A stretch of 39,268 nt of DNA, from the IMG/VR virus record IMGVR_UViG_3300045988_110019, positions 1 to 39,268 of that record, one strand, 5' to 3'. This document shows positions 291-38,895 of this stretch, in pieces. Made by a program: the position numbers and the translations under genes. The stretch comes from a virus. Each line of letters opens with the position of its first letter. The stretch's first letter is position 1. Under the pieces are notes generated by a model. The model was given only the letters and a program-made list of their open reading frames with translations, ran no database searches and was not told the DNA's origin.

Positions 291-1046
291 ATGAAAGATA
301 TAGAATTATTCAACGATCATTTTCAGAATTATAAAGTCTACGGCATTCCTAAAGCTCAACTAATTATAGCCGATGTTCCCTACAATTTAGGGAATAATGC
401 TTATGCCTCTAATCCTTCATGGTATGTGGATGGTGATAATAAGAATGGAGAAAGCGATAAAGCGGGTAAAGAATTCTTTGATACTGATAAAGATTTTCGC
501 CCGGCAGAGTTTATGCACTTTTGTAGCCAGATGCTTGTAAAAGAGCCAAAGGATAAAGGTAAGGCTCCTTGTATGATAATCTTTTGTGAATTTGAAGATC
601 AATTCCGATACATTGAATTAGGAAAGAGATATGGGTTAAATAATTACATCAATCTTGTATTCCGGAAAGATTTCTCCGCGCAGGTATTAAAAGCAAACAT
701 GAAAGTAGTAGGTAACTGTGAGTACGGTTTACTTCTTTATCGTGAAAAACTTCCAAAGTTCAACAATGATGGTCGGATGATATTCAACTGCTTTGATTGG
801 GTAAGAGATTCCGATACACCCAAAGTACATCCAACACAGAAACCGGTTCCACTTCTTCGTAGGCTGATAGAAATCTTCACTGATAAAGGTGATGTCGTTA
901 TCGACCCGTGCGCTGGAAGCGGTTCCACCTTATTAGCTGCTGCACAGTTGGGACGCAAGGCATACGGATTCGAGATTAAAAAAAAGTTTTTCGCTGATGC
1001 GAATAAATTGGTGTTATCGCGTATTCAGCAATCACTATTTGTATAA
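291..1046 (+). CDS. DNA methyltransferase, beta-class N6-adenine/N4-cytosine type (N4/N6 MTase family)
   Basis: Motif IV variant IIADVPYNLG precedes HPTQKPVPLLRRLI and the motif I region VVIDPCAGSGSTLLAAAQLGRKAYGFEI. This is the typical beta-class order. Confidence 0.85.
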   Translation: MKDIELFNDHFQNYKVYGIPKAQLIIADVPYNLGNNAYASNPSWYVDGDNKNGESDKAGKEFFDTDKDFRPAEFMHFCSQMLVKEPKDKGKAPCMIIFCEFEDQFRYIELGKRYGLNNYINLVFRKDFSAQVLKANMKVVGNCEYGLLLYREKLPKFNNDGRMIFNCFDWVRDSDTPKVHPTQKPVPLLRRLIEIFTDKGDVVIDPCAGSGSTLLAAAQLGRKAYGFEIKKKFFADANKLVLSRIQQSLFV

Positions 1047-15695: not shown

Positions 15696-17988
15696 GGTAG
15701 TACCGAGGGAGCGTGATGGGAAGTATGTTCCCCGCTCTGTGACTATTATACAGGGTGGCGGTGGTGGCGGTGATGTCACCAATGCCGATCATGCCAATTC
15801 CGCATATACGCTGGATGAGGACACACCTGTATTCAATTGGTTTATTTCCGCTTTAAATGACGATGAAGCGCAAGGGGTGATTAATTTTTTGAAGGGGATA
15901 AAAATTAGTGGGCACGATTTAAAGCGTATTGTCGGAACCAAAACAGAGTATGATGATATTAGGGATGATGATATGTTGACAGGTCTGTTTGTTATCGACC
16001 ATTTTTTACGGAAGGATAAACCAGATACGGCCAAAGAATTTATCACATTTGTAAAGGGGTGGTATGGAGGAAATTTTACACAAGGTTCAACCGGAGCAGG
16101 ATTATGGCAAGATGAACAAGGCGCATGGCATCTGGAACTTGACTATGCTCATTTTCGGAGGAAGTTGACCGCTGAAGAAATAGAAGTACAGAAGACAACC
16201 CATATCGGTGGAAAGTTGATGCAGACAGCGGCCGGAATGTCTTGTATAAAAGTTGAGGAATACAACGATTTTTGGCGATGTTACATGCGTACTAAGGATG
16301 CTGATGGAAGGATAATATATAATCAATTTAAGGAAAAAGATCAAGCACTGGTTGAAACGTTTAATTTGGAAAAGCAGGCAGATGGGAAACTAGGGAATCA
16401 TTATTTATGGCGTTTGGTTGTATCTGTAGGAACTGATTATATAGACCTGTCAAAAAGTGTATGTGCATTGGAGAGTGATGCTCCATTGGTAGGGGATGAT
16501 ATTGTACAATTAGGATATCAAGGTACAGATGATCCTAATAGGCAAAATGCTCAGATTTTAGCAGGTGCCGGCACAGGGTCTCCATACATAAGACAATATG
16601 TGGGGATCAATAATTTTATTTTGCCGGAAGAATATACCCGAATAAAACCGGGAGACAATCTGTTGACGGGAAGGATGAACTTGCAGCCGGGTTCTACAGG
16701 TTCGGCAAATCTGACGGATTTGCCGGATGAGGTTTATAAGGCTGTGAATATTGGTTCGGTCAATCTGTTACGTAATACTGGGTTTACGGGAGATTATGAA
16801 ACAGAGGATCTATCTGCCGCTATCGAGTTATCGGCGGATACCGAGCTTTTTAGCAAGCAATTGGAATATTGGACGGGAGTGGCTACCGTATCTGCGGACA
16901 GTGAGGCTATTTCCGGATATTCTGCTGCAATAGGCAGCTTGTCCCAATCTGTGTCGTTAATTAAAGGGGAAAGTTATGTTATCAGCTATAAAGCAAAGGG
17001 TACGTCTGTGTCTGTTTCGTGCGGTTCTTTCAGTGTTTCTCAGCCTCTCACATCCTCTTATCAGAGATATACCCATAAGATTACCTTCAATGGCAGTGGT
17101 ATATTTCTTATCAGTGGTACCGCAATCGTTTGTGACCTTCAGTTAGAAAGAGGAACTATCGCTACCGATTGGAAGCCTTCAATTCTTGACAATGACAAGT
17201 CTATGGCCGGATTTCAAGCAATTAACTATATCGCCAGTGCGATTAAGGATGGATCTGTGGATATCCTTGGCGGTTTGATATTGGCCAATATGATCCAACT
17301 AGGCAACTACAAGGATGGTAAGATGCAAAAGGTCACAGCCGGAGTGAGCGGCATATACAATGATGATGATGATGTGGCATTTTGGGCAGGAGGAAAACTT
17401 GAACAGGCTATTAGAACTGTGATGAGGTTTCGAAATGATCCGAATTACCAACCTACCGATAAAGAATGGGAGAACATGGCGAATTTCGTTGTCGCTCATG
17501 GTGGTGATGTGTTCTTAAGAGGATATATCTATGCTTTGGGCGGATATTTCCGGGGAAAAGTTGAAATAGCCAATGGCAAGATACTGTTGAATGAGGATGG
17601 TTCCGGGCAGCTTGCCAATGGGAACATTAAATGGGATGCAGAGGGAAATCCTGAATTTGTCGGGAAAGTGAAAGTTTCCTCACCGTCAGGTTACGAGATA
17701 ACCATATTCCCTGAGGATGAATATGGGAGACCGTCAATTGATATTCATGATAATGATGGTAATTCGCTCTTAGATATATCCCTTCAATACGGATTGAGCG
17801 GTATGGTTCCCCGTATTTTTATGAATGATCCTTCCAATAGTGATGTATTGTATTTTCGCCCGGACAGTATGGTTGTTGAGCAAAGAGGAAGTGACGGTTA
17901 TATATATCAGACCCAGATAATGGGAGGACGCATAATTATGGTTAAGGGATCTGAGATTGTATGGGATCAGAGCGTATTGCCAAAGTAA
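15661..17988 (+). CDS. Tail-tip / host-specificity protein with a jelly-roll carbohydrate-binding-like module
   Basis: 775 aa in the Tal position. The central segment NLLRNTGFTGDYE...YWTG...GESYVISYKAKG...LQLERGTIATDWKPS resembles CBM/laminin-G-like modules of phage fibres. Confidence 0.65.
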   Translation: MAIRSDIRIISRVVPRERDGKYVPRSVTIIQGGGGGGDVTNADHANSAYTLDEDTPVFNWFISALNDDEAQGVINFLKGIKISGHDLKRIVGTKTEYDDIRDDDMLTGLFVIDHFLRKDKPDTAKEFITFVKGWYGGNFTQGSTGAGLWQDEQGAWHLELDYAHFRRKLTAEEIEVQKTTHIGGKLMQTAAGMSCIKVEEYNDFWRCYMRTKDADGRIIYNQFKEKDQALVETFNLEKQADGKLGNHYLWRLVVSVGTDYIDLSKSVCALESDAPLVGDDIVQLGYQGTDDPNRQNAQILAGAGTGSPYIRQYVGINNFILPEEYTRIKPGDNLLTGRMNLQPGSTGSANLTDLPDEVYKAVNIGSVNLLRNTGFTGDYETEDLSAAIELSADTELFSKQLEYWTGVATVSADSEAISGYSAAIGSLSQSVSLIKGESYVISYKAKGTSVSVSCGSFSVSQPLTSSYQRYTHKITFNGSGIFLISGTAIVCDLQLERGTIATDWKPSILDNDKSMAGFQAINYIASAIKDGSVDILGGLILANMIQLGNYKDGKMQKVTAGVSGIYNDDDDVAFWAGGKLEQAIRTVMRFRNDPNYQPTDKEWENMANFVVAHGGDVFLRGYIYALGGYFRGKVEIANGKILLNEDGSGQLANGNIKWDAEGNPEFVGKVKVSSPSGYEITIFPEDEYGRPSIDIHDNDGNSLLDISLQYGLSGMVPRIFMNDPSNSDVLYFRPDSMVVEQRGSDGYIYQTQIMGGRIIMVKGSEIVWDQSVLPK

Positions 17989-17999
17989 AATGAAGTGAT

Positions 18000-18338
18000 A
18001 TGGAACTTAATAGTATTAATAAAACAGGTACTTGGAGTGAGGCGGTAGATCGTCTTAACAGCAACTTTAGCAAGACCTCCACTGAAGTGGAGAAGGTCAA
18101 GCAGAACGTTATACGCAACAAGGGATTGTTTTCGACTGTAGAAGCATTGCAGGCTGCTGTCCCATCTCCTGTTGTGGGTGACTGGGCAGTTGTGGGGGAT
18201 ACCATACCGGGTCCTCTGTATCAATGTAAGACGAGAGGTGTTTGGAGCGAAACAGGAACAATCGGAGGCGGTGGAAGTGTTGACCTTTCCGGCATCTTGA
18301 CAGTCGAGGAGATAGATGATGTAACATCAATATTATAG
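18000..18338 (+). CDS. Hypothetical tail-associated protein
   Basis: 112-aa ORF in the tail-fibre region. Confidence 0.55.
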   Translation: MELNSINKTGTWSEAVDRLNSNFSKTSTEVEKVKQNVIRNKGLFSTVEALQAAVPSPVVGDWAVVGDTIPGPLYQCKTRGVWSETGTIGGGGSVDLSGILTVEEIDDVTSIL

Positions 18339-18340
18339 CT

Positions 18341-18772
18341 ATGAAAATTAATTATCAGTCCGATTTTAAAATTATAGAGAAAAACCTGAATGGAGACATA
18401 TCAACTCCCTTCCGGTTTACTTACTTCAATCCGTTTAAGGGAAAGTTTATAGCCTCCTTTGACGGACAAGAGTATGTGGGTTGCAGCCGTATGGAAGATG
18501 GCAGTCTGCTTGTTGCTTTTGACAACCCCGGTTTCTCTCCCGGTATGTTAAAGGTCAAACGGGAATACTTCATCTCTGATGTTGACTTTAGAGATGGCAT
18601 CTGCAACATTGTATCTATTGAAGATACAGGGATTGTGCTGACTACTGGAAAGACCGATGAAAGCACAGCGGAAATAACATCTTATCCTGATTATGTCGTC
18701 TACAATGCGGTGCAGAGCGTATCTCTGTCAGATAAGGAGTATGATGATGTGTTGAGTGATTTTAATAGTTAA
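18341..18772 (+). CDS. Hypothetical tail-associated protein
   Basis: 143-aa ORF in the tail-fibre region. Confidence 0.55.
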   Translation: MKINYQSDFKIIEKNLNGDISTPFRFTYFNPFKGKFIASFDGQEYVGCSRMEDGSLLVAFDNPGFSPGMLKVKREYFISDVDFRDGICNIVSIEDTGIVLTTGKTDESTAEITSYPDYVVYNAVQSVSLSDKEYDDVLSDFNS

Positions 18773-18839
18773 TAAATAATTACATAAAATAACAACAGTC
18801 CAAGTTCCGGCGGAACTTAGGCTAAAAATAAGATACATT

Positions 18840-20948
18840 ATGGCAAAAATGCATAAACTGACGAAGGGCGGACAAACCATTTACCCGGCTACCATCTATA
18901 ATGCGGTGGTTAACCCCCAAACGCGTAAGAGCCTGGCTACAGAAATATCCGAATTGGAAAGTTCTTTAAATGGTGGTGATACCGGATATATCAATCTTAA
19001 TATCCAATCGTGGGTAACAGGCCAGTGGACGGGAGAAGGATCATCATTGACTCATAATGATAACTCTTCTTATAAACGTAATACTGAGGTGAGTACTCTT
19101 ATTAAAAGTGGCGCTGTTTTAACAATGTATGAAGCCTCCGGAAAACAAGTGAAAATGAATGGTTATGGTATTACATTCAAGTTCAGAGGTTCCGCAAAAA
19201 ACAAGGTAGAATGGAGCTGGTATGAATCCGGTAGTGGTATCCAGATTGGGAATACTGATGCTGTTGAGATTTATATGACTGTTGCATCATCCGGTATAGA
19301 GTCTTTGAACGGGTTTGTAATTAAGGGAGCTTATGTGAAAGGAGCCGGGGATAAAATCAGTGAATTGACGGAAAATGTGGAATCTTTGGAACGATCTACG
19401 GCCGACAATATAGAACATATATCCAATCTTGACGAATCGGTTAATGGTGGCAATGTTGGACGCATATATATTAATGAGGATGATCTGGTTATCGGACGCT
19501 GGACAGGTGAGGGAAAGAATCTGAAAGCAGATTCAATGGAGGGATATTTGCGAACGAAAGAAATATATGACATAAACTTGAAAGCCGGTGACTTGGTTTC
19601 TGTATATGACAAGACTGGAAAACAAGTGAAAGCCAACAGTCTCGGACTGAATATGAAGTTCAAAAACTCGACTAATACATCATCCATCATCTCCTATCAG
19701 GACAACGGTACTTATTACAAACTCAATGAGGATGCGACGCAGATGGCATTTTTTGGAACTTCGTCGGCCGTTGAAAAGATTACCGGTTACTATTTCAAAG
19801 GATTTCGGGTTAAAGGCTTTGACGAAAAAATCAGCGATGTAGATGAGTCTATTCACAAACATATTAATGATGTAAAAATCACTGATTTTTATCATTCTCT
19901 TAAAATACTTTTCATCGGTTCTTCCTTTGGAGTTGACACGATTAATTACGTTGGAGATATAGCGCACAGTTATAATTTTAAGATTGTTATCGGCAACCTT
20001 TATGTTGGCGCTTCTGGTATTAAGGATTATATAACATTTTACGAATCAGACCGCAAAATATCCTACTATAAGTGGGGGGTGAATGCCATTGCCTGGGAGA
20101 ATGGCACCAGTACGGTAAAAGAGGCCTTGTCTGACGAAGCGTGGGATTTTGTGGTAATCCAGAACGGAGCATATCAATCCGCAGATGAGTCAACCTATTG
20201 GGATCAGGACGAGAAAGGGAATATTACCAATAACTATGTGAGTCTGTTTGCTGACATCATTGATAGATGTTGCCTGTTCTCGCATCCTGTAATCTGTTTT
20301 AACATGACATGGGCGTACAGCGTATATCATACGCTCTCATCATCGCAAGGATCGAAAGACAAGTGGCTGAGTTTCGGCATTAATCAAAAGCAGAGGCAGC
20401 TGGGTATGTATACGGAATTGTGCCGCTTGGCTCAAAAGGTATTGCAACATTGCCCGAAAGTAAAATTCGTCATCCCTTCCGGAACAGCCGTACAAAATGC
20501 CAGAGGCACGTCTTTAAGGGCCGATACGACCATACAGGGAGTTGTGTCTCAATCCAATCCGGAAACGGGCACTCCTGTTACAACCGTGGTCCCAACCATA
20601 GAAGAAGCTGAATCAATGACTGACTTGAATCAGGCTGCGGTAGATTATCCATTCATGGCCGGTAAGGATAATAACTTCATGAACTGGCATTATGGTACAG
20701 ATTTGAGCAGGGACTGTCTGCACATGACAGAAGGGATCGGAAGATATCTTGTAGGAGGAGCCTTATGGCAGATGATTGGTTATAAACTTAGTCACTTAAA
20801 CTTCTTAGGAAATACATACCGGACGACTAAGGAAGACAAAACGAATTACAGAATCATAGCGGTTACTGACAGAAGAGCTAATATCGCTCAAAAGTGTGTG
20901 ATTGCCGCATTGGATAACCCGTATGGGGTTTCAGACATTACGGAATAA
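18840..20948 (+). CDS. Tail fibre/spike with duplicated N-terminal modules and a C-terminal SGNH (DUF4886-like) esterase domain
   Basis: Two ~150-aa repeats sharing the motifs G.WTGEG, GKQVK.N and KIS. C-terminal part has ILFIGSSFGVDT, FVVIQNGAYQS and DCLHMTEGIGRYLVGGALW, matching SGNH blocks I, III and V (D-x-x-H). Confidence 0.75.
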   Translation: MAKMHKLTKGGQTIYPATIYNAVVNPQTRKSLATEISELESSLNGGDTGYINLNIQSWVTGQWTGEGSSLTHNDNSSYKRNTEVSTLIKSGAVLTMYEASGKQVKMNGYGITFKFRGSAKNKVEWSWYESGSGIQIGNTDAVEIYMTVASSGIESLNGFVIKGAYVKGAGDKISELTENVESLERSTADNIEHISNLDESVNGGNVGRIYINEDDLVIGRWTGEGKNLKADSMEGYLRTKEIYDINLKAGDLVSVYDKTGKQVKANSLGLNMKFKNSTNTSSIISYQDNGTYYKLNEDATQMAFFGTSSAVEKITGYYFKGFRVKGFDEKISDVDESIHKHINDVKITDFYHSLKILFIGSSFGVDTINYVGDIAHSYNFKIVIGNLYVGASGIKDYITFYESDRKISYYKWGVNAIAWENGTSTVKEALSDEAWDFVVIQNGAYQSADESTYWDQDEKGNITNNYVSLFADIIDRCCLFSHPVICFNMTWAYSVYHTLSSSQGSKDKWLSFGINQKQRQLGMYTELCRLAQKVLQHCPKVKFVIPSGTAVQNARGTSLRADTTIQGVVSQSNPETGTPVTTVVPTIEEAESMTDLNQAAVDYPFMAGKDNNFMNWHYGTDLSRDCLHMTEGIGRYLVGGALWQMIGYKLSHLNFLGNTYRTTKEDKTNYRIIAVTDRRANIAQKCVIAALDNPYGVSDITE

Positions 20949-21035: not shown

Positions 21036-21071
21036 CATAAGGGCTGACCTACACCAAGATCAGCCCTTATG
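21036..21071 (+). terminator. Hairpin terminator at the end of the structural operon
   Basis: 12-bp perfect stem cataagggctga / tcagcccttatg. Confidence 0.6.
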
Positions 21072-21124
21072 TATTATCGTTAGCGTTATTGTCGGCTGTC
21101 TTTTTGTGTTTAAATGTTAAATAT

Positions 21125-21200
21125 TACACAATCCAAGAAAATATATTGTGATTTGTTTTGCCATTATATCACAATGTTGTATATTTGCATTGTGATAATA
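21125..21200 (+). promoter_or_regulatory. Bacteroides-type promoter (-33 TTTG, -7 TATATTTG) interleaved with ATTGTGAT/ATCACAAT operator-like repeats
   Basis: TTTG at 21157-21160, then a 19-nt spacer, then TAtaTTTG at 21180-21187. ATTGTGAT at 21145-52 and 21189-96, ATCACAAT at 21168-75, and the variant TACACAAT at 21125-32. Confidence 0.6.
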
Positions 21201-21234
21201 AAACAACAAGTAATAACAAACAAAACATACAATT

Positions 21235-21510
21235 ATGAAAAGTTACACATATCAAGAAATAGTAGAGAGATTTGGTGAAGAAATAGCTGATAAAGCTATA
21301 TCTACTGGCGCAGAACCTACAAGCAGATATATTTATCCGGCGTTTGAACCACAACATGTAGGTCTAAAAGAGTGGGCTGAATCCCCTATTGAGATTGATG
21401 GCTATATAATCCGCGCATATTACTACTTGACGGAAGAGGATGAACAGAATTTAGACTTTTTTGATTGGGAAGAGAAGGCAGAATTTGAGGTTGAAGAAAT
21501 TTTTTTATGA
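21235..21510 (+). CDS. Small acidic hypothetical protein (91 aa)
   Basis: First ORF downstream of the promoter/operator cluster. Glu/Asp-rich. Confidence 0.6.
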   Translation: MKSYTYQEIVERFGEEIADKAISTGAEPTSRYIYPAFEPQHVGLKEWAESPIEIDGYIIRAYYYLTEEDEQNLDFFDWEEKAEFEVEEIFL

Positions 21511-21554
21511 TAAATATAAAGCTGGTGACAACAGATTAATTCAGTATCAAAATT

Positions 21555-21830
21555 ATGAAAACTTTAGAATTGTACAACAAGATCAAAGAATTAGGCATTA
21601 ATGCGGAAATGATATCTATGTTTTCTTATAGAATTAATAAGGATAAGAGATTTAACACGATAGAAGTATTCGAAGCTCCATCTATTGAATTAATTAGATT
21701 ATGTGATTCTTATAACTGCCAGTTAATAGCAAACATTTTGAATAAAAAAAATGAATATGGGGAATTTGATCAGGTGGTAGTCTATGAAGTTTATCCGATT
21801 AATTTGAACGATATAGAGTTTGTAGAATGA
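21555..21830 (+). CDS. Small hypothetical protein (91 aa)
   Basis: Second ORF of the same short operon. Confidence 0.6.
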   Translation: MKTLELYNKIKELGINAEMISMFSYRINKDKRFNTIEVFEAPSIELIRLCDSYNCQLIANILNKKNEYGEFDQVVVYEVYPINLNDIEFVE

Positions 21831-21845
21831 AAATTTTTTTCAATT

Positions 21846-22334
21846 ATGATACAGAAAAATATAGATAACGAATTAGGATGGTGGGGTGACTCAATTAGAG
21901 AGACCCCCAATAGATATGCGTATGTTAGGCAACATTGTTCTAATGATGTTTGCGATTTAAAGCCAATCGCATACAATGTTATATGGTCGTTACTATTACA
22001 TTCTGAGATAGAGGATCTTAATTACTATAATGAGAACCACGCGATAGATGAAACGTGTGTTTTTTATGAATTTTACTATGATCTTGGTTTTGAACTTCCA
22101 GAGGATAGAGGTTTTGATATGAATTATTATCCACATATTTGTATTGAACTGAATGACGAGAATGGATATGAAGGTGATATTGATATCTTCATGCTGGAAG
22201 AATGGCCCGTTTCCGAAGATATGACGGATGAAGATAGAGAGCGTTTTGATACGATACGAAAAAAATCTCCTATCACATTAGGGGATTTTGATACGAATGA
22301 CCTACATACATTTTTTTGCAAAATAAAAGAATAA
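21846..22334 (+). CDS. Strongly acidic hypothetical protein (162 aa)
   Basis: Roughly a quarter of residues are D or E and few are basic. Last ORF before the terminator. Confidence 0.6.
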   Translation: MIQKNIDNELGWWGDSIRETPNRYAYVRQHCSNDVCDLKPIAYNVIWSLLLHSEIEDLNYYNENHAIDETCVFYEFYYDLGFELPEDRGFDMNYYPHICIELNDENGYEGDIDIFMLEEWPVSEDMTDEDRERFDTIRKKSPITLGDFDTNDLHTFFCKIKE

Positions 22335-22339
22335 AAAAC

Positions 22340-22361
22340 AGAGGCGGATTTCTCCGCCTCT
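22340..22361 (+). terminator. Hairpin terminator after the acidic-protein operon
   Basis: Perfect 9-bp stem agaggcgga / tccgcctct with loop tttc, flanked by an A-run upstream. Confidence 0.6.
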
Positions 22362-22536
22362 TCACTATACAGTGGCTGTATAGAAATACTAATTTGTGAG
22401 CAAATCACAATGACATTTCTAATGTCGTTTCAATCCACGCACCGAAGTGCGACTAACATCGTTGATGTCCGATGCAAAGGTGCAACTTTTTGAATTAACG
22501 AGCAACAAATTATAAATGTTATAAAACATATTAATT

Positions 22537-22824
22537 ATGGCAAGAAGACGATCTATTACCCTAGATCAAGAGTCTAGGGTGTTGTCCCTATATAAGGACG
22601 GGATGGCTATCAAGGAGATAATGAAGGAAACAGATATAAAGTCTGAGCAAACGATATACAGGATATTGGACAGCAATGGTGTGCCAAGACGTCCCAAGGT
22701 TAGAGGTGTAAGAAAAATATTTGTCACGATAGAGGAGGATGTAGCTGCTATCTTGGATAAGGAGCAATCAGTATCATTATATGTCAATGAGGCTATAAGA
22801 TTCTATCACGGTAACCGACATTAA
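22537..22824 (+). CDS. Small helix-turn-helix DNA-binding protein (resolvase-HTH/HTH_23-like)
   Basis: SLYKDGMAIKEIMKETDIKSEQTIYRIL is a typical HTH. Upstream palindrome TTGTGA-N5-TCACAA at 22394-22410. Confidence 0.65.
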   Translation: MARRRSITLDQESRVLSLYKDGMAIKEIMKETDIKSEQTIYRILDSNGVPRRPKVRGVRKIFVTIEEDVAAILDKEQSVSLYVNEAIRFYHGNRH

Positions 22825-22986
22825 TTGCCGGTTATCTATCTCTTAAAATCAAGAGACTGTTGCGGATTAGTTTCCGTGGCAGGCTCTTTTTTTTGTCATA
22901 CAAAATAAAGGTTAGTTTGATAATCGGGTAATCCAAAACGTGTAATTAAAGGATTAAAAAAGGATTGAACTTAAATTGTTTGTATA

Positions 22987-23232
22987 ATGAGAAAGGAGAC
23001 AAAAGAAAACATTCAGTATTCAACTGCCGTGGGGATGCTTGTACTGGGAGCGTCCTTGGCTGTGGCTGGCTTTGTGTGCTCTGAACCTATGGGTCAGATA
23101 CACGACAGTGTATTGTGGTTGTTTGCTCAATGTCTGTTGTATGCCGGTAGTGTTTTTGGCATCAGCATTTATATTAACAGCCGGTTTAATAATTTAATAG
23201 AGCAATTAAAAGAAAAGGAGGGAAAGAAATGA
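22987..23232 (+). CDS. Holin-like protein (two transmembrane segments, charged C-terminus)
   Basis: 81 aa with two hydrophobic helices and the tail KEKEGKK. ATGA overlap with the next gene. Confidence 0.55.
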   Translation: MRKETKENIQYSTAVGMLVLGASLAVAGFVCSEPMGQIHDSVLWLFAQCLLYAGSVFGISIYINSRFNNLIEQLKEKEGKK

Positions 23233-23633
23233 AGAGTTTACCAAGAGGTTTGAGAAACAACAATCCGGGTAATATCCGAATAACAAAGGATAAATGGCAG
23301 GGATTGAGAGAGAAACAGACAGACAAGGAGTTTTTTCAGTTTGTAGAAATGAAATGGGGTTATCGTGCTTTAATCCGTACATTGCAGAATTACAGAAGGA
23401 GACACAACTGTGTTTGTATTGCAGACTTTATTACAAGATGGGCCCCACAGACAGAGAACAATACAGGGGATTACATCAGACGGGTATGTCAGGATATGCA
23501 GGTACCTTCAGTATATGTTCCGGACATTGAGGATAAAGATACGATGTGTTCTTTGGCTGCCGCTATATCTTATGTTGAAAATGGTGTTCCTGCCGTAATG
23601 GAGGATATCTATAAGGGATGGGACCTGCTATGA
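23229..23633 (+). CDS. Putative endolysin / cell-wall hydrolase (LRNNNPGNIR-motif family)
   Basis: Sits between the holin-like and spanin-like genes. I associate the N-terminal RGLRNNNPGNIR motif with phage wall-acting or virion proteins. Family identity not verified. Confidence 0.4.
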   Translation: MKSLPRGLRNNNPGNIRITKDKWQGLREKQTDKEFFQFVEMKWGYRALIRTLQNYRRRHNCVCIADFITRWAPQTENNTGDYIRRVCQDMQVPSVYVPDIEDKDTMCSLAAAISYVENGVPAVMEDIYKGWDLL

Positions 23634-27094: not shown

Positions 27095-27306
27095 TCCCCG
27101 ATATATAAAAATCGGGGACTAAATCGGGGACTGTTTACGGCAGTGTCTGAAAGATTTAGATAATAATACCCCCGTTAAAAAGCCATTCAGAAGGCATTAG
27201 AACGGGGATAACAGGTTTAACCATTGATATTTCGATTCTCATCGGGTGTACAAATGATACTGAAAATCAGTATTTTTAAAGAAAAAGGGACTAATTAAGG
27301 GACTAA
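27095..27306. promoter_or_regulatory. Candidate attP region with two pairs of 12-nt-period GGGACT repeats
   Basis: aatcggggact at 27111-21 and 27123-33, with the inverted copy atccccgat at 27095-103. agggactaa at 27286-94 and 27298-306. Non-coding and adjacent to the integrase 3' end. Confidence 0.4.
27257..27277 (+). terminator. Bidirectional hairpin terminator between the rightward genes and the integrase
   Basis: Stem atactga / tcagtat with loop aaa, followed by a T-run. Lies 30 nt beyond the integrase stop on the other strand. Confidence 0.5.
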
Positions 27307-30749: not shown

Positions 30750-31154
30750 TTAAGCTGTTTTTCTTAATTCTGTAAGTAGGTCTGTAATTCCCTCTAACTT
30801 GTCTACTGACGATTGAGTATTATTGTCTATACTTTTCAGCCTCTTGTTAACCATACTCATAAATTCAACCAATACGTTTCGGAAGAGGCTTTCTGCATGG
30901 GCTTCTTCCTCCTTTTTCTCATTTGGCGATGAGGCTATAAGCATTTCTCCTTTTCCACGGAGTAGCCATTCGGCGGAAATGAGCGGTTCAGCTTCCAAAA
31001 TTTTATATAATGTTGAATATTTTGGCTCTGCACCTCTTAATATATCGTTAAGTGATGTCTGTGCAACGCCTATCTTTTCTGCAAAAGATCTTTTACTTTT
31101 ATATCCACATTGAGATATAATTTGAGCAATTCTTTCATTTACAGTTGTTTCCAT
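30750..31154 (-). CDS. CI-like repressor (XRE-family HTH)
   Basis: NERIAQIISQCGYKSKRSFAEKIGVAQTSLNDILRG...AEWLLRGKGEM is the typical Bacteroides phage-repressor HTH. Divergent from the early operon. Confidence 0.8.
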   Translation of the reverse strand: METTVNERIAQIISQCGYKSKRSFAEKIGVAQTSLNDILRGAEPKYSTLYKILEAEPLISAEWLLRGKGEMLIASSPNEKKEEEAHAESLFRNVLVEFMSMVNKRLKSIDNNTQSSVDKLEGITDLLTELRKTA

Positions 31155-31180
31155 AATATATTATTTAAAACATTTTCTAA

Positions 31181-31410
31181 ATAACGGTCTAACTTGTATT
31201 TTTAAACGGTTTAGCTTGTTATTGAATGGTAAACCGTTTATCTTTGCATCCGTAACCAATAAAAAAACGGTTGCAAACGGATATAAAAATGGCTGTCACG
31301 ACATAAACCGTGATTTTGTTCGCACCAAAATTGTTCCAGCGGCAAATATAGTGACTTCCATTTTAATATCCTACAAATGAATTAAAAATTAGACGATACG
31401 GTTTAGTGGT
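31181..31410. promoter_or_regulatory. Immunity-region operator array and rightward promoter
   Basis: AACGGTCTAACTTGTAT (31183-99) and AACGGTTTAGCTTGTTAT (31205-22), 22 nt apart. Inverted TAAACCGTTTA (31230-40). Further ACGGT/ACCGT sites at 31266, 31305, 31398 (ACGGTTTAG) and 31414. TAtcTTTG -7 box at 31239-46. Confidence 0.55.
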
Positions 31411-31512
31411 GTTTACCGTAAGTTATTTAGGATATCAAAATAAAGCTCTTGCTTAGTACCAATCAACACCACACTAGATTGAGAACGGCAAGGGCTTTTG
31501 CTTTTAGAGGAT

Positions 31513-33040: not shown

Positions 33041-33143
33041 ATAATAAAAGACAGTAGGCGCGCCTGTTTCATTGTGATTTTAGGATTTGACGCTTTTAGG
33101 TGCGCCTACTTCTTGGATTAAGAACAAGAAAAAGAGTTTGATT

Positions 33144-34200: not shown

Positions 34201-35139
34201 ATGAACTACGGATTACCATATATGGGGAGTAAGTCCAAGATAGCGGAATGGGTTGTTTCAAATCTTCCTTCAGCTGATATCTGGATAGAGCCTTTTGCCG
34301 GAGGATGTGCCGTCACTCATGCCGCCATTTTATCCGGTAAGTATAAACATTTTATTATTAATGACATAACGGATAGTACTAAAACATTCATTTATGCAAT
34401 TAAAGGAGGATTTAAGAACGAAAACCGCTGGATAAGCCGAGAAGACTTTTTCCGGTTGAAGGATACGGATCCCTATGTACGTATATGTTTTTCCTTCGGA
34501 AACGATCAGAGGACTTACTGTTATGGTGATATAGAGCCTTATAAGCGTGCGTTTCATTATGCCGTGTTTAATGATTTTAAGCCATTTGCAGAGCTTAGAA
34601 TACTTATTCCAGATTGCGTCTTAAATGGGTGTAAAAACACATATGAAAAGCGTTTAAGGATAAAAAAATTTTTAATCCAGATTAGAAAAGATAAACATGC
34701 AGGCGATTTGCAAAGTTTGGAAAGTTTGGAAAGTTTGGAAAGGTTGCAAAGTTTGGAAAGGTTGGAAAGGTTGCAAAGTTTGGAAAGGTTGCAAAGTTTG
34801 GGAAATTTGCAAAGTTTGCAGGGAGATTATAAGACTATATCCATTCCGACTGATAAGAGCTATGTAATATATTGTGACCCACCATATAAAAACACATCCT
34901 CATACCTTGATGATTTCAATCACGAAGACTTTTATAAATGGGCTTTAAAGCAAGATAATTGCTATATATCGGAATATAATATGCCTGATTCTTTTGTTAG
35001 GATAGCTTTAAAGAGCAAGCTGTCGCTGAAAGCAGCGACAGGGAATAGAAAGATTAAGGAAGAAGGTATATGGGTTTCAAAAGAGAATGTAAATAGGATG
35101 AGTAATGTATATATGCCATTGTTTAAAAACTTTATTTAA
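34201..35139 (+). CDS. dam: DNA adenine methyltransferase (Dam / D12 class) with an internal repeat insertion
   Basis: LPYMGSKSKIAEWV, EPFAGGCAV (motif I) and IYCDPPY (motif IV). Confidence 0.85.
   Translation: MNYGLPYMGSKSKIAEWVVSNLPSADIWIEPFAGGCAVTHAAILSGKYKHFIINDITDSTKTFIYAIKGGFKNENRWISREDFFRLKDTDPYVRICFSFGNDQRTYCYGDIEPYKRAFHYAVFNDFKPFAELRILIPDCVLNGCKNTYEKRLRIKKFLIQIRKDKHAGDLQSLESLESLERLQSLERLERLQSLERLQSLGNLQSLQGDYKTISIPTDKSYVIYCDPPYKNTSSYLDDFNHEDFYKWALKQDNCYISEYNMPDSFVRIALKSKLSLKAATGNRKIKEEGIWVSKENVNRMSNVYMPLFKNFI
34708..34821 (+). repeat. About 12.5 copies of the 9-nt unit TTGSAAAGK, encoding (L-Q/E-S/R)n inside the Dam gene
   Basis: ttgcaaagt ttggaaagt ttggaaagt ttggaaagg ... read directly. 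Translates as LQSLESLESLERLQSLERLERLQSLERLQSLGNLQSLQ. Confidence 0.9.
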
Positions 35140-37534: not shown

Positions 37535-38320
37535 ATGGAACAGAAAACATTTGAAAAAATAAAGGAAGAACTATTACTGCGCGCCAAGAAAGCAGGAGCC
37601 TGTCAAATAGGTTATGCAATGGGATTAAGGAGTCAAAGCAAAGCTGATATACTTAAGGCTATTACTGATAACTGGTTTTGGGTGTTACGAACAGCAAGAA
37701 TAGTAGATGCAGAATATTTAGAAGACAATTTTACTGAAGAAGAGCTTACGGAAGCTGGTATCTATACACAAAAATACCATGAGGTAACAACGACATCTTT
37801 TGCCTGCGGCAGCGCAACAGTGGAAGCCTGCGGCAGCGCAACAGTGGAAGCCTACGACAGCGCAACAGTGGAAGCCTACGACAGCGCAACAGTGGAAGCC
37901 TGCGACAGCGCAACAGTGAAAGCCTACGGCAGCGCAACAGTGAAAGCCTACGACAGCGCAACAGTGGAAGCCTACGGCAGCGCAACAGTGAAAGCCTACG
38001 ACAGCGCAACAGTGAAAGCCTACGACAGCGCAACAGTGGAAGCCTACGACAGCGCAACAGTGGAAGCCTACGACAGCGCAACAGTGGAAGCCTGCGACAG
38101 CGCAACAGTGAAAGCCTACGGCAGCGCAACAGTGAAAGCCTACGACAGCGCAACAGTGAAAGCCTACGACAGCGCAACAGTGGAAGCCTACGAAAATTCT
38201 TATGTTGAGGATTTAACAGGTAATATTAGGCCCCAGTCTGGATATGCAGTAATCAAGGATTATTACAACCATAAGATTTACATCAAAAAAGGGAGATATC
38301 AGATTGTAGAGGTTGATTAA
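37535..38320 (+). CDS. Repeat protein: globular N-terminal domain plus 16 octapeptide repeats A-[CY]-[GD]-SATV-[EK]
   Basis: 261-aa ORF. The repeat region translates in frame with no stops. Confidence 0.7.
   Translation: MEQKTFEKIKEELLLRAKKAGACQIGYAMGLRSQSKADILKAITDNWFWVLRTARIVDAEYLEDNFTEEELTEAGIYTQKYHEVTTTSFACGSATVEACGSATVEAYDSATVEAYDSATVEACDSATVKAYGSATVKAYDSATVEAYGSATVKAYDSATVKAYDSATVEAYDSATVEAYDSATVEACDSATVKAYGSATVKAYDSATVKAYDSATVEAYENSYVEDLTGNIRPQSGYAVIKDYYNHKIYIKKGRYQIVEVD
37802..38193 (+). repeat. 16.3 copies of a 24-nt tandem repeat (gcctRcgRcagcgcaacagtgRaa)
   Basis: Counted directly. Units start at 37802 with a period of 24. A partial 17th unit follows at 38186-38193. Confidence 0.95.
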
Positions 38321-38385: not shown

Positions 38386-38895
38386 ATGGCTCAAAACGGA
38401 ATAGAAATGAGTGAAACAAAAATAATATTAGATGCCTGTTGTGGCAGTAGGATGTTTTGGTTTGATAAGAAGAATCCAAACGTTCTTTTCCAAGATATTC
38501 GTGATGTCGAATATGTTTTATGCGATGGTCGTAAGCTGGAAGTCCATCCTGATGTGGTTGCCGACTTTACAGCAATGCCGTATTCGGACAGTTCTTTTAA
38601 ACTTGTAGTCTTTGATCCTCCACACCTTGATAATGCGAACGAGGGTGCATATATGGCTCAAAAGTATGGAACGCTTCGACGGTTTAAGTGGCAGGAAGAT
38701 ATAAAGAAAGGATTCAGCGAATGTATGCGAGTGCTTGAACCGAACGGAGTGCTGATTTTCAAATGGAACGAAACTCGTATTCCTGTAAGACGAATATTGG
38801 AGATAATCAATGAGCGGCCGCTATTCGGGCATAAGTCCGGAAAAGCATCTAAAACTCATTGGATGTGCTTTATGAAATTGCCAATTAATTCTTAA
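38386..38895 (+). CDS. Small SAM-dependent methyltransferase, probable DNA N6A/N4C methylase
   Basis: Motif I-like ILDACCGSRMFWF followed by motif IV-like VVFDPPHL, then LEPNGVLIFKW. Confidence 0.6.
   Translation: MAQNGIEMSETKIILDACCGSRMFWFDKKNPNVLFQDIRDVEYVLCDGRKLEVHPDVVADFTAMPYSDSSFKLVVFDPPHLDNANEGAYMAQKYGTLRRFKWQEDIKKGFSECMRVLEPNGVLIFKWNETRIPVRRILEIINERPLFGHKSGKASKTHWMCFMKLPINS

Follow-up and report, generated by a model that had tools for sequence, protein, structure and literature searches.

A repeat-bearing promoter and a small HTH gene enclose a slot of exchangeable small genes in a gut Phocaeicola phage

Does a compact group of small acidic proteins, followed by a small DNA-binding protein, represent a counter-defence (anti-CRISPR-type) locus in a phage of the Bacteroidota, where such loci have been hard to find? 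The question was raised by a preliminary description of one 39,268-nt stretch of viral DNA (IMG/VR record IMGVR_UViG_3300045988_110019, positions 1 to 39,268; referred to below as the window), which is a temperate siphovirus-type phage of Phocaeicola. It described a self-contained unit between the structural-operon terminator and the lysis cassette, with a Bacteroides promoter bracketed by three copies of an 8-mer, three small ORFs, a perfect 9-bp terminator, and a 95-aa HTH protein with an inverted repeat upstream of it. It likened this to anti-CRISPR (Acr) and anti-CRISPR-associated (Aca) loci in architecture only, and suggested that the last of the three proteins had the charge profile of DNA mimics such as Ocr or ArdA.

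We first examined whether these features were present, and observed that the observation was correct: every feature listed was found at its position (Table 1). A few details needed correction. orfC, given as about 24% D+E, is 22.8% D+E, and it is orfA that is the most acidic, while orfB is only mildly acidic. The hairpin after orfC, described as a terminator, was called as a terminator only on the minus strand, so read-through into the HTH gene is plausible. A fourth, degenerate half-site was also seen, 20 nt upstream of the first repeat.

Table 1. Positions of the features of the unit within the window.
Feature	Position	Strand	Description and evidence
Upstream hairpin	21036..21071	+	Ends the structural (tail-fibre) operon and forms the left boundary; 15-nt arms (21036-21050 / 21057-21071), 93% complementary, 6 nt between the arms; follows the DUF4886 fibre gene 18840-20948
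Promoter/operator block	21100..21205	+	About 105 nt; near-invariant in 73 of 84 HTH loci; found in 96 IMG/VR stretches; sequences on both sides switch between unrelated types in relatives
Fourth half-site	21125..21132	-	Degenerate, TACACAAT; a perfect ATCACAAT in divergent copies of the block (contigs L187, L188 and L190)
Half-site	21145..21152	+	ATTGTGAT, just upstream of the -33 element; invariant across relatives
Core promoter	21157..21187	+	Bacteroides type; -33 TTTG (21157-21160), 19-nt spacer, -7 box TATATTTG (21180-21187)
Half-site	21168..21175	-	ATCACAAT, inside the promoter spacer; invariant across relatives
Half-site	21189..21196	+	ATTGTGAT, over the expected transcription start region; with 21167-76 forms a perfect 10-nt palindrome, TATCACAATG/CATTGTGATA, around the -7 box
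orfA	21235..21510	+	91 aa, pI 4.1, 25.3% D+E; predicted soluble alpha/beta protein with a conserved AEPTSR...AYYY motif; 23 clusters and 63 representative clusters; AF2 pLDDT 91.2
orfB	21555..21830	+	91 aa, pI 4.7; mobile small accessory gene; in 35 IMG/VR contigs at 73-100% identity, usually next to orfC and without the block or the HTH
orfC	21846..22334	+	162 aa, pI 4.25, 22.8% D+E; 12 clusters; AF2 pLDDT only 65
Hairpin after orfC	22340..22361	+	GC-rich, perfect 9 bp (22340-22348 / 22353-22361); no T-tract on the + strand, probably a leaky terminator; shared by about 19 relatives, with a different hairpin at the same position in about 35 others
Inverted repeat	22394..22410	.	TTGTGA-GCAAA-TCACAA at the 5' edge of the HTH leader; candidate autoregulatory operator; replaced at the same position by TGTGG-TTTAAA-CCACA in the other leader class
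HTH leader	22396..22536	+	About 141 nt; conserved in about 55 of 82 loci; strongly structured as RNA (fold of 22335-22545, z-score -4.8); no Rfam family reached its gathering score
HTH gene	22537..22824	+	95-aa basic protein, pI 9.6; putative repressor; Pfam HTH_7 E=3.9e-7, phrog_1303 E=7e-10; 276 clusters, at least 120 of them at least 88% identical
Terminator	22857..22892	+	Intrinsic, 10-bp stem plus T-run (terminator scan 22857-22882); ends the unit before the holin-like gene; lysis genes follow, phrog_8278 at 22987-23232 and endolysin phrog_873 at 23229-23633

We next asked whether the repeats and the promoter exceed what chance would give. The count of the 8-mer ATTGTGAT/ATCACAAT over the whole window was not significant on its own (5 found against 2.6 expected), and the fifth copy, at 33071, is single and consistent with chance. 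However, the clustering was significant, since only 5 of 100 Markov-simulated windows contained any 8-mer with 3 or more copies within 60 nt. The full consensus TTTG-N18-22-TAnnTTTG occurs only once in the window on either strand, and that occurrence is in this block. TTGTGA-N5-TCACAA is also unique in the window (0.02 expected).

The unit was then compared with its relatives in IMG/VR. We observed that 77 of 78 copies of the block were followed, 266-1313 nt downstream, by the same 95-aa HTH_7 protein (at least 89% identical). Conversely, only about 5 of about 75 HTH loci lacked the block, and these are rearranged. Between the block and the HTH gene we found 79 distinct segments, carrying about 12 real and unrelated cargo families of 58-163 aa, of which orfA, orfB and orfC are three. 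Eight of the 12 have a pI of 4.0-4.7 and none has a TM-like segment, although two common families, F3 and F5, are not acidic. The families occur in at least 16 combinations, 13 of them behind the same upstream gene. Near-identical backbones carry different cargo, for example relatives L043 and L046 against the window. In about 25 relatives the HTH gene directly abuts the last cargo ORF, as in a true operon.

To assess constraint on the repeats, we compared the columns of the block. In the three repeats plus the -7 box 4 of 32 columns vary, as against 15 of 35 elsewhere (Fisher p=0.007). In divergent copies the repeats and the -7 box are 32/32 identical, as against 53/64 elsewhere (p=0.014). 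The whole block is highly conserved, so that part of this signal could reflect recent shared ancestry or a recombination linker. The half-sites overlap the core promoter, which is repressor geometry, and an inverted repeat is kept at the same position in two unrelated HTH-leader classes. The recognition helix of the HTH protein (residues 37-46) is invariant in 111 homologues, while the neighbouring helix varies; this invariant helix, paired with invariant operators, is the only support, and an indirect one, for binding of the repeats and repression of the promoter by this protein. No promoter for the HTH gene could be identified in its leader.

We further evaluated the identity of the cargo. 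Searches of Pfam, PHROGs, NCBIfam and PADLOC with orfA, orfB, orfC and six other cargo families gave nothing above noise; with PADLOC there was no hit at E<=1 for the HTH protein or for any of these 9 families. A PDB sequence search with orfA, orfB and orfC gave nothing meaningful. Structure prediction had been set beforehand as a check; the confident orfA model, searched with Foldseek against PDB and BFVD, and the low-confidence orfC model, searched against PDB, gave no hit at E<0.1 (best E of 0.12-0.49, TM below 0.4), and a weak AcrID1 row (E=2.6, TM 0.31) is noise. Longer members of the orfA family carry no known domain in their extensions, and two very long weak hits proved to be FG-GAP and TPR repeat noise, not polyvalent proteins. 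DNA and protein comparison with deposited phages gave no match for the unit or for the HTH protein; only the fibre region is about 81% identical to Bacteroides phage BS-TP3. A PDB sequence search with the HTH protein at E<=1 returned no Aca, so that it belongs to no Aca family with a solved structure, and a 2026 survey of Aca proteins mentions no HTH_7 or Bacteroidota member.

The cargo genes also move between phage lineages. orfA, orfB and orfC occur in other Bacteroidota phages, where they sit next to unrelated small HTH genes (HTH_17 in L088-091, HTH_3 in L267/L270). In this, as in their orphan status, they behave like counter-defence genes. The block was likewise seen in another setting. 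In the three contigs L187, L188 and L190 it carries four perfect half-sites and drives a 265-aa ANT/KilAC antirepressor-domain protein (Pfam ANT E=1.2e-22), with no HTH homologue within 10 kb on either side. The repeats may therefore be read by another factor, or in trans.

Several other identities were considered and rejected. A role as tail-fibre chaperone was rejected, since the cargo does not co-vary with the upstream gene. A small terminase was rejected because the hits were marginal only; by position, a 136-aa ORF (2192-2602) sits directly upstream of TerL. The repeats do not appear to be operators of the phage CI-like repressor, as neither the 8-mer nor TTGTGA or TCACAA occurs in the switch region 31154-31498. 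An antisense promoter feeding the minus-strand-oriented terminator was rejected, since no TAnnTTTG lies on the minus strand of the leader. The motif of the CRP-like host regulator BT4338 (TATGTTnTAnAACATA, PMC6989115) is unrelated to ATTGTGAT.

Taken together, these results suggest an autonomous, autoregulated payload cassette of the Acr/Aca-like type, a reading that we hold tentatively (probability about 0.45). In this view, the consensus host-type promoter would need no phage factor and could fire as soon as the DNA enters the cell, driving whichever small soluble proteins occupy the slot. The HTH_7 protein, made by co-transcription or read-through, would bind the half-sites that bracket the -33 element, the spacer, the -7 box and the start site, as well as the inverted repeat in its own leader, and so shut the promoter down after an initial burst, the negative feedback logic of acr-aca operons. 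The interchangeable, mostly acidic payload proteins would most likely be stoichiometric inhibitors of host proteins, with defence systems as the leading candidates. What the analysis establishes is the anatomy of the unit, the conserved promoter and HTH frame around a hypervariable slot, the selective constraint on the repeats, the orphan status of the cargo with a confidently predicted orfA fold lacking a detectable structural neighbour, and the mobility of the cargo. That the HTH protein is the one that binds the repeats, that it represses rather than activates, that expression is early, that the unit lies at the end of the late region, and that the payload counteracts defence are inferred. 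The locus satisfies three of the four published criteria for an Acr candidate locus (a directon of at most 5 genes, an HTH protein in the directon, and no PDB or CDD hit; PMC8008677), the fourth being a machine-learning Acr score. The interpretation in the preliminary description is thus supported in part: the architectural resemblance holds and becomes much stronger once relatives are compared, but the DNA-mimic suggestion is unsupported, acidity alone being non-specific, and nothing links the proteins to CRISPR or to any particular defence system.

The main rival, though unlikely, is an anti-immunity module like immI of phage P22, in which the cargo would be small antirepressors inactivating the phage CI-like repressor (30750-31154) or those of resident prophages, in induction control or inter-phage competition, and the small DNA-binding protein would play the role of Arc or Mnt. 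The ANT phages keep this reading alive, as does the position next to tail-fibre genes within the presumed late region, and small acidic antirepressors are known in other temperate phages. On the other hand, no cargo protein in the window or in the roughly 150 HTH loci has an ANT, Bro-N or KilA domain, the regulator matched HTH families only and no RHH model was hit (with its C-terminal 45 residues unassigned), the 8-mer is missing from the lysogeny-switch region, and twelve unrelated cargo families in one phage lineage are more than a single repressor target would demand. About as unlikely is an ordinary lysogenic-conversion moron hotspot, expressed from the prophage for the benefit of the lysogen (superinfection exclusion, prophage-encoded defence or host physiology), with the HTH as its local regulator. 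The unit does have its own promoter and terminator between tail and lysis genes of a temperate phage and shows presence/absence polymorphism among close relatives, a descriptive class that is compatible with our preferred reading; a host-type promoter could be active in lysogens, and orfA relatives lie next to the integrase and CI-like genes in other prophages. However, apart from the lack of PADLOC hits, none of the cargo has the signal peptide-like or TM-like segment usual in exclusion and surface-conversion proteins, and the half-sites covering the core promoter, together with a linked repressor-type gene, argue by inference for transient rather than constitutive expression.

Least likely of these, the HTH protein may have a different primary job, in regulating lysis or late genes or as an accessory or directionality factor for the tyrosine recombinase (family F2) and invertible fibre segments just upstream in many relatives, and would merely border a hotspot where unrelated small genes accumulate, the repeats being bound by another phage or host factor. 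The HTH is indeed retained in about 5 rearranged loci without the block or cargo, the block occurs without the HTH in the ANT phages, F2 and fibre fragments on both strands lie directly upstream of the block in many relatives, and the HTH gene directly precedes the lysis cassette. But the window and several relatives lack F2 yet keep the HTH, the downstream lysis genes also vary while the HTH stays, and the linkage in 77 of 78 copies is hard to explain if block and HTH are functionally unrelated.

A bolder reading is possible, though less likely than not: that this is a previously unrecognized plug-and-play counter-defence locus of abundant human-gut Phocaeicola/Bacteroides phages. A new Aca-like regulator family of HTH_7 type would then control a consensus promoter through ATTGTGAT operators, and the slot would hold a dozen new inhibitor families, orfA among them, which would be the long-missing Acr/anti-defence proteins of Bacteroidota phages. 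As the same block is also wired to an antirepressor in other phages, resident HTH-carrying prophages could regulate incoming phages in trans. Bacteroidota dominate the human gut, and most carry active CRISPR-Cas and many other defences, yet Acr predictors find candidates in only a small minority of their phages (PMC8008677). The locus offers an experimentally tractable entry point to this problem, with a conserved promoter/operator and HTH anchor for guilt-by-association mining and about 12 orphan payload families for screening against Phocaeicola defence systems. If the payloads are inhibitors, they would be new tools and new biology for gut phage-host dynamics, phage therapy and Bacteroides genetics; if not, the tightly repressible consensus promoter and its cognate small repressor, as inferred here, would still be a useful regulatory part for Bacteroides engineering.

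When we compared the unit with known systems, the resemblance to the DNA-mimic anti-restriction proteins T7 Ocr and ArdA lay in charge only (bulk net charge of -16 for orfA and -24 for orfC). There was no sequence or fold similarity in the PDB, Foldseek and NCBIfam searches, and the orfA model is a compact alpha/beta domain, not an elongated DNA-like dimer. With phage morons (lambda lom/bor type, HK97 type) it shares an autonomous promoter-gene-terminator unit inserted between late genes of a temperate phage and variably present among relatives. Classic morons, however, lack a dedicated linked repressor and a conserved frame with an exchangeable payload, and many encode envelope proteins, whereas these cargo proteins are predicted to be soluble. 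With the immI region of Salmonella phage P22 (Pant-arc-ant, mnt) it shares an operator-controlled strong promoter near tail genes and, in the proposed mechanism, a burst of a trans-acting protein followed by shut-off through a small co-encoded repressor, and the block drives an ANT-domain antirepressor in L187, L188 and L190. Arc and Mnt are ribbon-helix-helix proteins, whereas this regulator is HTH_7; the window's cargo has no ANT domain, and the slot holds about 12 unrelated families rather than one antirepressor.

The closest parallel is with acr-aca operons, such as acrIF1-aca1 of Pseudomonas JBD30 and acrIF8-aca2 of Pectobacterium ZF40. Aca proteins are HTH or RHH repressors that bind promoter inverted repeats and sometimes structured 5' UTRs (PMC13551039). 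The present unit differs in that the regulator is of the HTH_7 (resolvase-type HTH) kind with no similarity to any solved Aca, no cargo protein resembles a known Acr in the searches made, the host phylum is Bacteroidota, and the promoter is of the -33/-7 type. The half-sites lie about two helical turns apart (20, 23 and 21 nt centre to centre) in alternating orientation, not as one or two compact palindromes, and in the window a hairpin and a 141-nt leader separate the cargo from the regulator. In both, a strong promoter carries inverted repeats that overlap the core elements, one to several small, often acidic, orphan proteins follow on the same strand, and a small DNA-binding protein sits at the 3' end. 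In both, the locus can sit inside the late/structural region, and the structured leader recalls the RNA motifs reported in the 5' UTRs of acr-aca operons for Aca1 and Aca2 (PMC13551039). As in acr-aca operons, the regulator is conserved across mobile elements while the upstream genes vary, which is the basis of guilt-by-association discovery.

We first examined the gene order of the 39-kb window (40.5% GC), which is a temperate siphovirus-type phage genome. A DNA methyltransferase, the large terminase, the portal, the major head protein, the tape measure and the tail proteins are followed by a 702-aa fibre carrying DUF4886, and then by the unit under study. Downstream lie a holin-like gene, an endolysin and a TM protein, several small genes, an integrase (-) and a CI-like repressor (-), and the early genes, which include two more methyltransferases. 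The presence of three DNA methyltransferase genes in one 39-kb phage suggests self-methylation as an additional anti-restriction strategy. Homologues of the HTH protein are annotated in Phocaeicola vulgatus and P. dorei genomes, but neither the unit nor the HTH protein was found in deposited phage genomes. The only deposited phage sharing a sizeable stretch with the window (9% of the 20-kb query) was Bacteroides phage BS-TP3.

We observed that the sequence features listed in the preliminary description were all present at the positions it gave. The three 8-mers were exact copies, and the pair around the -7 box could be extended to a perfect 10-nt palindrome. With the degenerate fourth half-site, the half-site centres were 20, 23 and 21 nt apart, in alternating orientation. 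The global count of the 8-mer was unremarkable (5 against 2.6 expected), but the clustering was not, since only 5 of 100 Markov-simulated windows contained any 8-mer with 3 or more copies within 60 nt. TTTG-N19-TATATTTG was the only full Bacteroides promoter consensus in the window on either strand. The calculated pI and D+E content were 4.1 and 25.3% for orfA (91 aa), 4.7 and 16.5% for orfB (91 aa), 4.25 and 22.8% for orfC (162 aa), and 9.6 and 14.7% for the HTH protein (95 aa). One correction was required. The hairpin after orfC, which had been described as a perfect terminator, lacks a T-tract on the + strand, and so it is probably leaky.

Coordinates of the features in the window and in related viral contigs
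Sequence	Coordinates	Feature	Detail
Window	291-1046	DNA methyltransferase gene	phrog_67, phrog_56 and phrog_954, in the order of the three methyltransferase genes
Window	16759-18935	Stretch adjoining the fibre gene and reaching its start	About 81% identical at the DNA level to Bacteroides phage BS-TP3
Window	18840-20948	Tail fibre	DUF4886 domain, E=8e-30
Window	21125-32	Fourth half-site	Degenerate
Window	22335-22545	Region between orfC and the HTH start codon	Packed with small hairpins; RNA fold z=-4.8
Window	22340-61	Small hairpin
Window	22365-83	Small hairpin
Window	22394-410	Small hairpin
Window	about 22412-26	Small hairpin
Window	27095-27132	ATCCCCGAT followed by two tandem copies of AAATCGGGGACT	Non-coding stretch between the DUF7841 gene and the 3' end of the integrase gene
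Window	34201-35139	DNA methyltransferase gene (methyltransferase-like ORF)	See 291-1046
Window	34707-34818	9-nt tandem repeat, TTTGGAAAG	12.4 copies, inside ORF 34201-35139
Window	37535-38320	ORF	phrog_15773, unknown function
Window	37802-38193	Tandem array of a 24-nt unit	16.3 copies at 95% matches; encodes an 8-residue repeat inside ORF 37535-38320
Window	38386-38895	DNA methyltransferase gene	See 291-1046
L109 / L187	9637-10798	Promoter block, leader and ANT/KilAC antirepressor gene	Also in L188 and L190
L076 (example from L006-L085)	about 2040 to 760 nt upstream of the HTH start	Tyrosine recombinase	Absent from the window
L267	1845-2606	Serine recombinase (Pfam Resolvase), 253 aa	orfA-orfB array directly downstream
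L279	4530-5744	404-aa ORF	Next to the orfB-orfC array

The 9-nt repeat could be a 3-residue protein repeat or iteron-like origin repeats, and the repeats next to the integrase gene are candidate attP or arm-type sites.

We further compared the unit with its relatives. The HTH protein was widespread, with 276 clusters, of which at least 120 were at least 88% identical, while orfA had 23 clusters and orfC had 12. In 80 IMG/VR loci fetched through the HTH gene, orfA, orfB and orfC came and went independently, and most loci had none of them. ORF clustering revealed a constant frame, in which a promoter block with the three 8-mers is followed by variable small genes and then by the HTH. The block, of roughly 105 nt, was nearly invariant, while the sequences on both sides of it switched between unrelated types. 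In one long-read assembly (L002, ENA contig_2701_polypolish) that carries an orfC relative, the gene calls were fragmented and the orfA and HTH matches were broken; frameshift errors are more likely here than real pseudogenes.

To carry out the reverse test, we used the block itself as the query. This found 96 stretches, and of the 78 with enough downstream sequence, 77 had the HTH gene 266-1313 nt downstream. Only about 5 HTH loci truly lacked the block, and in each of them an inverted fibre segment abutted the HTH region, which indicates rearrangement. In about half of the related phages (among loci L006-L085), a 412-434-aa tyrosine recombinase matching Phage_integrase, SAM_5 and Arm-DNA-bind_5 lies just upstream of the promoter block, next to tail-fibre gene fragments on both strands. 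This looks like an invertible, shufflon-like fibre region. When both sets were pooled, we obtained 79 distinct promoter-to-HTH segments holding about 12 genuine cargo families of 58-163 aa. Of these 12, 8 had a pI of 4.0-4.7, and none had a TM-like hydrophobic stretch. There were at least 16 combinations, and 13 of them occurred behind the same upstream gene. The cargo therefore does not track the fibre or recombinase module.

We then evaluated whether the repeats are likely to be functional. Among 48 distinct block sequences, 4 of 32 columns varied in the three repeats plus the -7 box, while elsewhere in the block 15 of 35 varied (Fisher p=0.007). In the most divergent copies, from contigs L187, L188 and L190, the repeats and -7 box were 31-32/32 identical, against 53-54/64 elsewhere (p=0.014). 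The predicted recognition helix of the HTH (residues 37-46) was invariant in 111 homologues, although the preceding helix and the termini varied. These data support protein-binding operators, and make the linked HTH the obvious candidate for the protein that would bind them.

When we examined the region upstream of the HTH gene, we observed three arrangements. In about 25 loci there was no leader and the HTH abutted the last cargo ORF, which is operonic. In about 35 loci there was a conserved 141-nt leader, preceded by a hairpin and the palindrome TGTGG-TTTAAA-CCACA. In about 19 loci, including the window, the same leader was preceded by a different hairpin and TTGTGA-GCAAA-TCACAA. An inverted repeat is thus retained at the same place in two unrelated upstream junctions. 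As RNA, the leader region folded far better than shuffles, and no Rfam family fitted it. It may be a regulatory 5' UTR, as reported for some aca operons.

The cargo was evaluated by sequence and structure searches. orfA, orfB, orfC and six other cargo families hit nothing in Pfam, PHROGs, NCBIfam (which includes curated anti-CRISPR and anti-restriction models) or PADLOC, and orfA, orfB and orfC hit nothing meaningful in PDB sequences. orfA gave a confident AlphaFold model (pLDDT 91.2, pTM 0.78), with a two-helix N-terminus packed on a beta-sheet. This model had no structural neighbour in PDB or BFVD (best E of 0.15-0.49 and TM below 0.4). orfC was modelled poorly (pLDDT 65), and also had no match. 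An exhaustive profile search gave orfA 63 representative clusters, most of which were stand-alone proteins of about 90 aa sharing an AEPTSR...AYYY motif, with occasional fusions to other unknown acidic domains.

We observed that these genes are mobile. Divergent orfA homologues sit in variable small-gene arrays in other temperate Bacteroidota phages, where one set follows an HTH_17 gene and another lies beside the integrase and CI-like genes. The orfB-orfC pair was adjacent in at least 25 other viral contigs of 50-110 kb, without the block or the HTH. In two further contigs, L267 and L270, the array orfA-orfB-F5-(99 aa), where F5 is another of the cargo families, is followed by a 70-aa HTH_3 protein. 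The same cargo is therefore associated with three unrelated small HTH families in different backbones. In other phages these arrays neighbour a serine recombinase in L267 and, in contig L279, an ORF that looks like a TnpB/IS605-type protein, an identification made by eye only.

A complication came from a different phage. In three contigs (L109=L187, L188, L190) the same block, with four perfect ATCACAAT/ATTGTGAT half-sites, precedes a roughly 300-nt leader and drives a 265-aa ANT/KilAC antirepressor (Pfam E=1.2e-22), and no HTH homologue lies within 10 kb on either side. The operator may be read in trans, for example by HTH-carrying prophages in the same host, or another factor may bind it, or the block may be a promoter part that recombines between phages.

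The best-supported model, to which we give a probability of about 0.45, is an autoregulated payload cassette that works like acr-aca operons. In this view, a consensus host promoter would fire without any phage factor and small soluble inhibitors would be produced in a burst. The HTH would then accumulate and shut the promoter through operators overlapping the -33 region, the spacer, the -7 box and the start site. The anatomy of the unit, the conserved frame around a variable slot and the constraint on the repeats come from the sequence comparisons, while binding of the HTH to the repeats, the burst and shut-off, and the inhibitor role of the cargo are inferred. The interpretation in the preliminary description, of an architectural resemblance to Acr/Aca loci with a charge profile like that of DNA mimics, was supported only in part, since the DNA-mimic idea rests on charge alone and nothing ties the unit specifically to CRISPR.

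Among the alternatives, an immI-like anti-immunity module is unlikely but is kept in view by the antirepressor contigs, which evoke the P22 immI module. A lysogenic-conversion moron is about as unlikely, and an HTH with another primary role next to a recombination hotspot is the least likely of the three. The CRP-like host regulator BT4338 is excluded as the reader of the repeats by its motif (PMC6989115).

Predictors find few anti-defence genes in Bacteroidota phages despite abundant CRISPR targeting (PMC8008677), and this locus turns that open question into one that can be addressed by direct experiments. The HTH_7 regulator family, the ATTGTGAT operator set on a Bacteroides -33/-7 promoter, the frame-plus-slot organisation and all of the payload families appear to be undescribed, as none of the searches of deposited phages or of the literature turned up a description of them. 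The kind of system, however, is known, being an operator-controlled accessory operon with a linked small repressor. Although the cargo showed no similarity to a known Acr in PDB sequences, Foldseek or NCBIfam, and the HTH showed none to an Aca protein with a solved structure, the unit meets the architectural criteria used to nominate Acr loci (PMC8008677), and it also parallels the regulatory themes described for Aca1-14 (PMC13551039).
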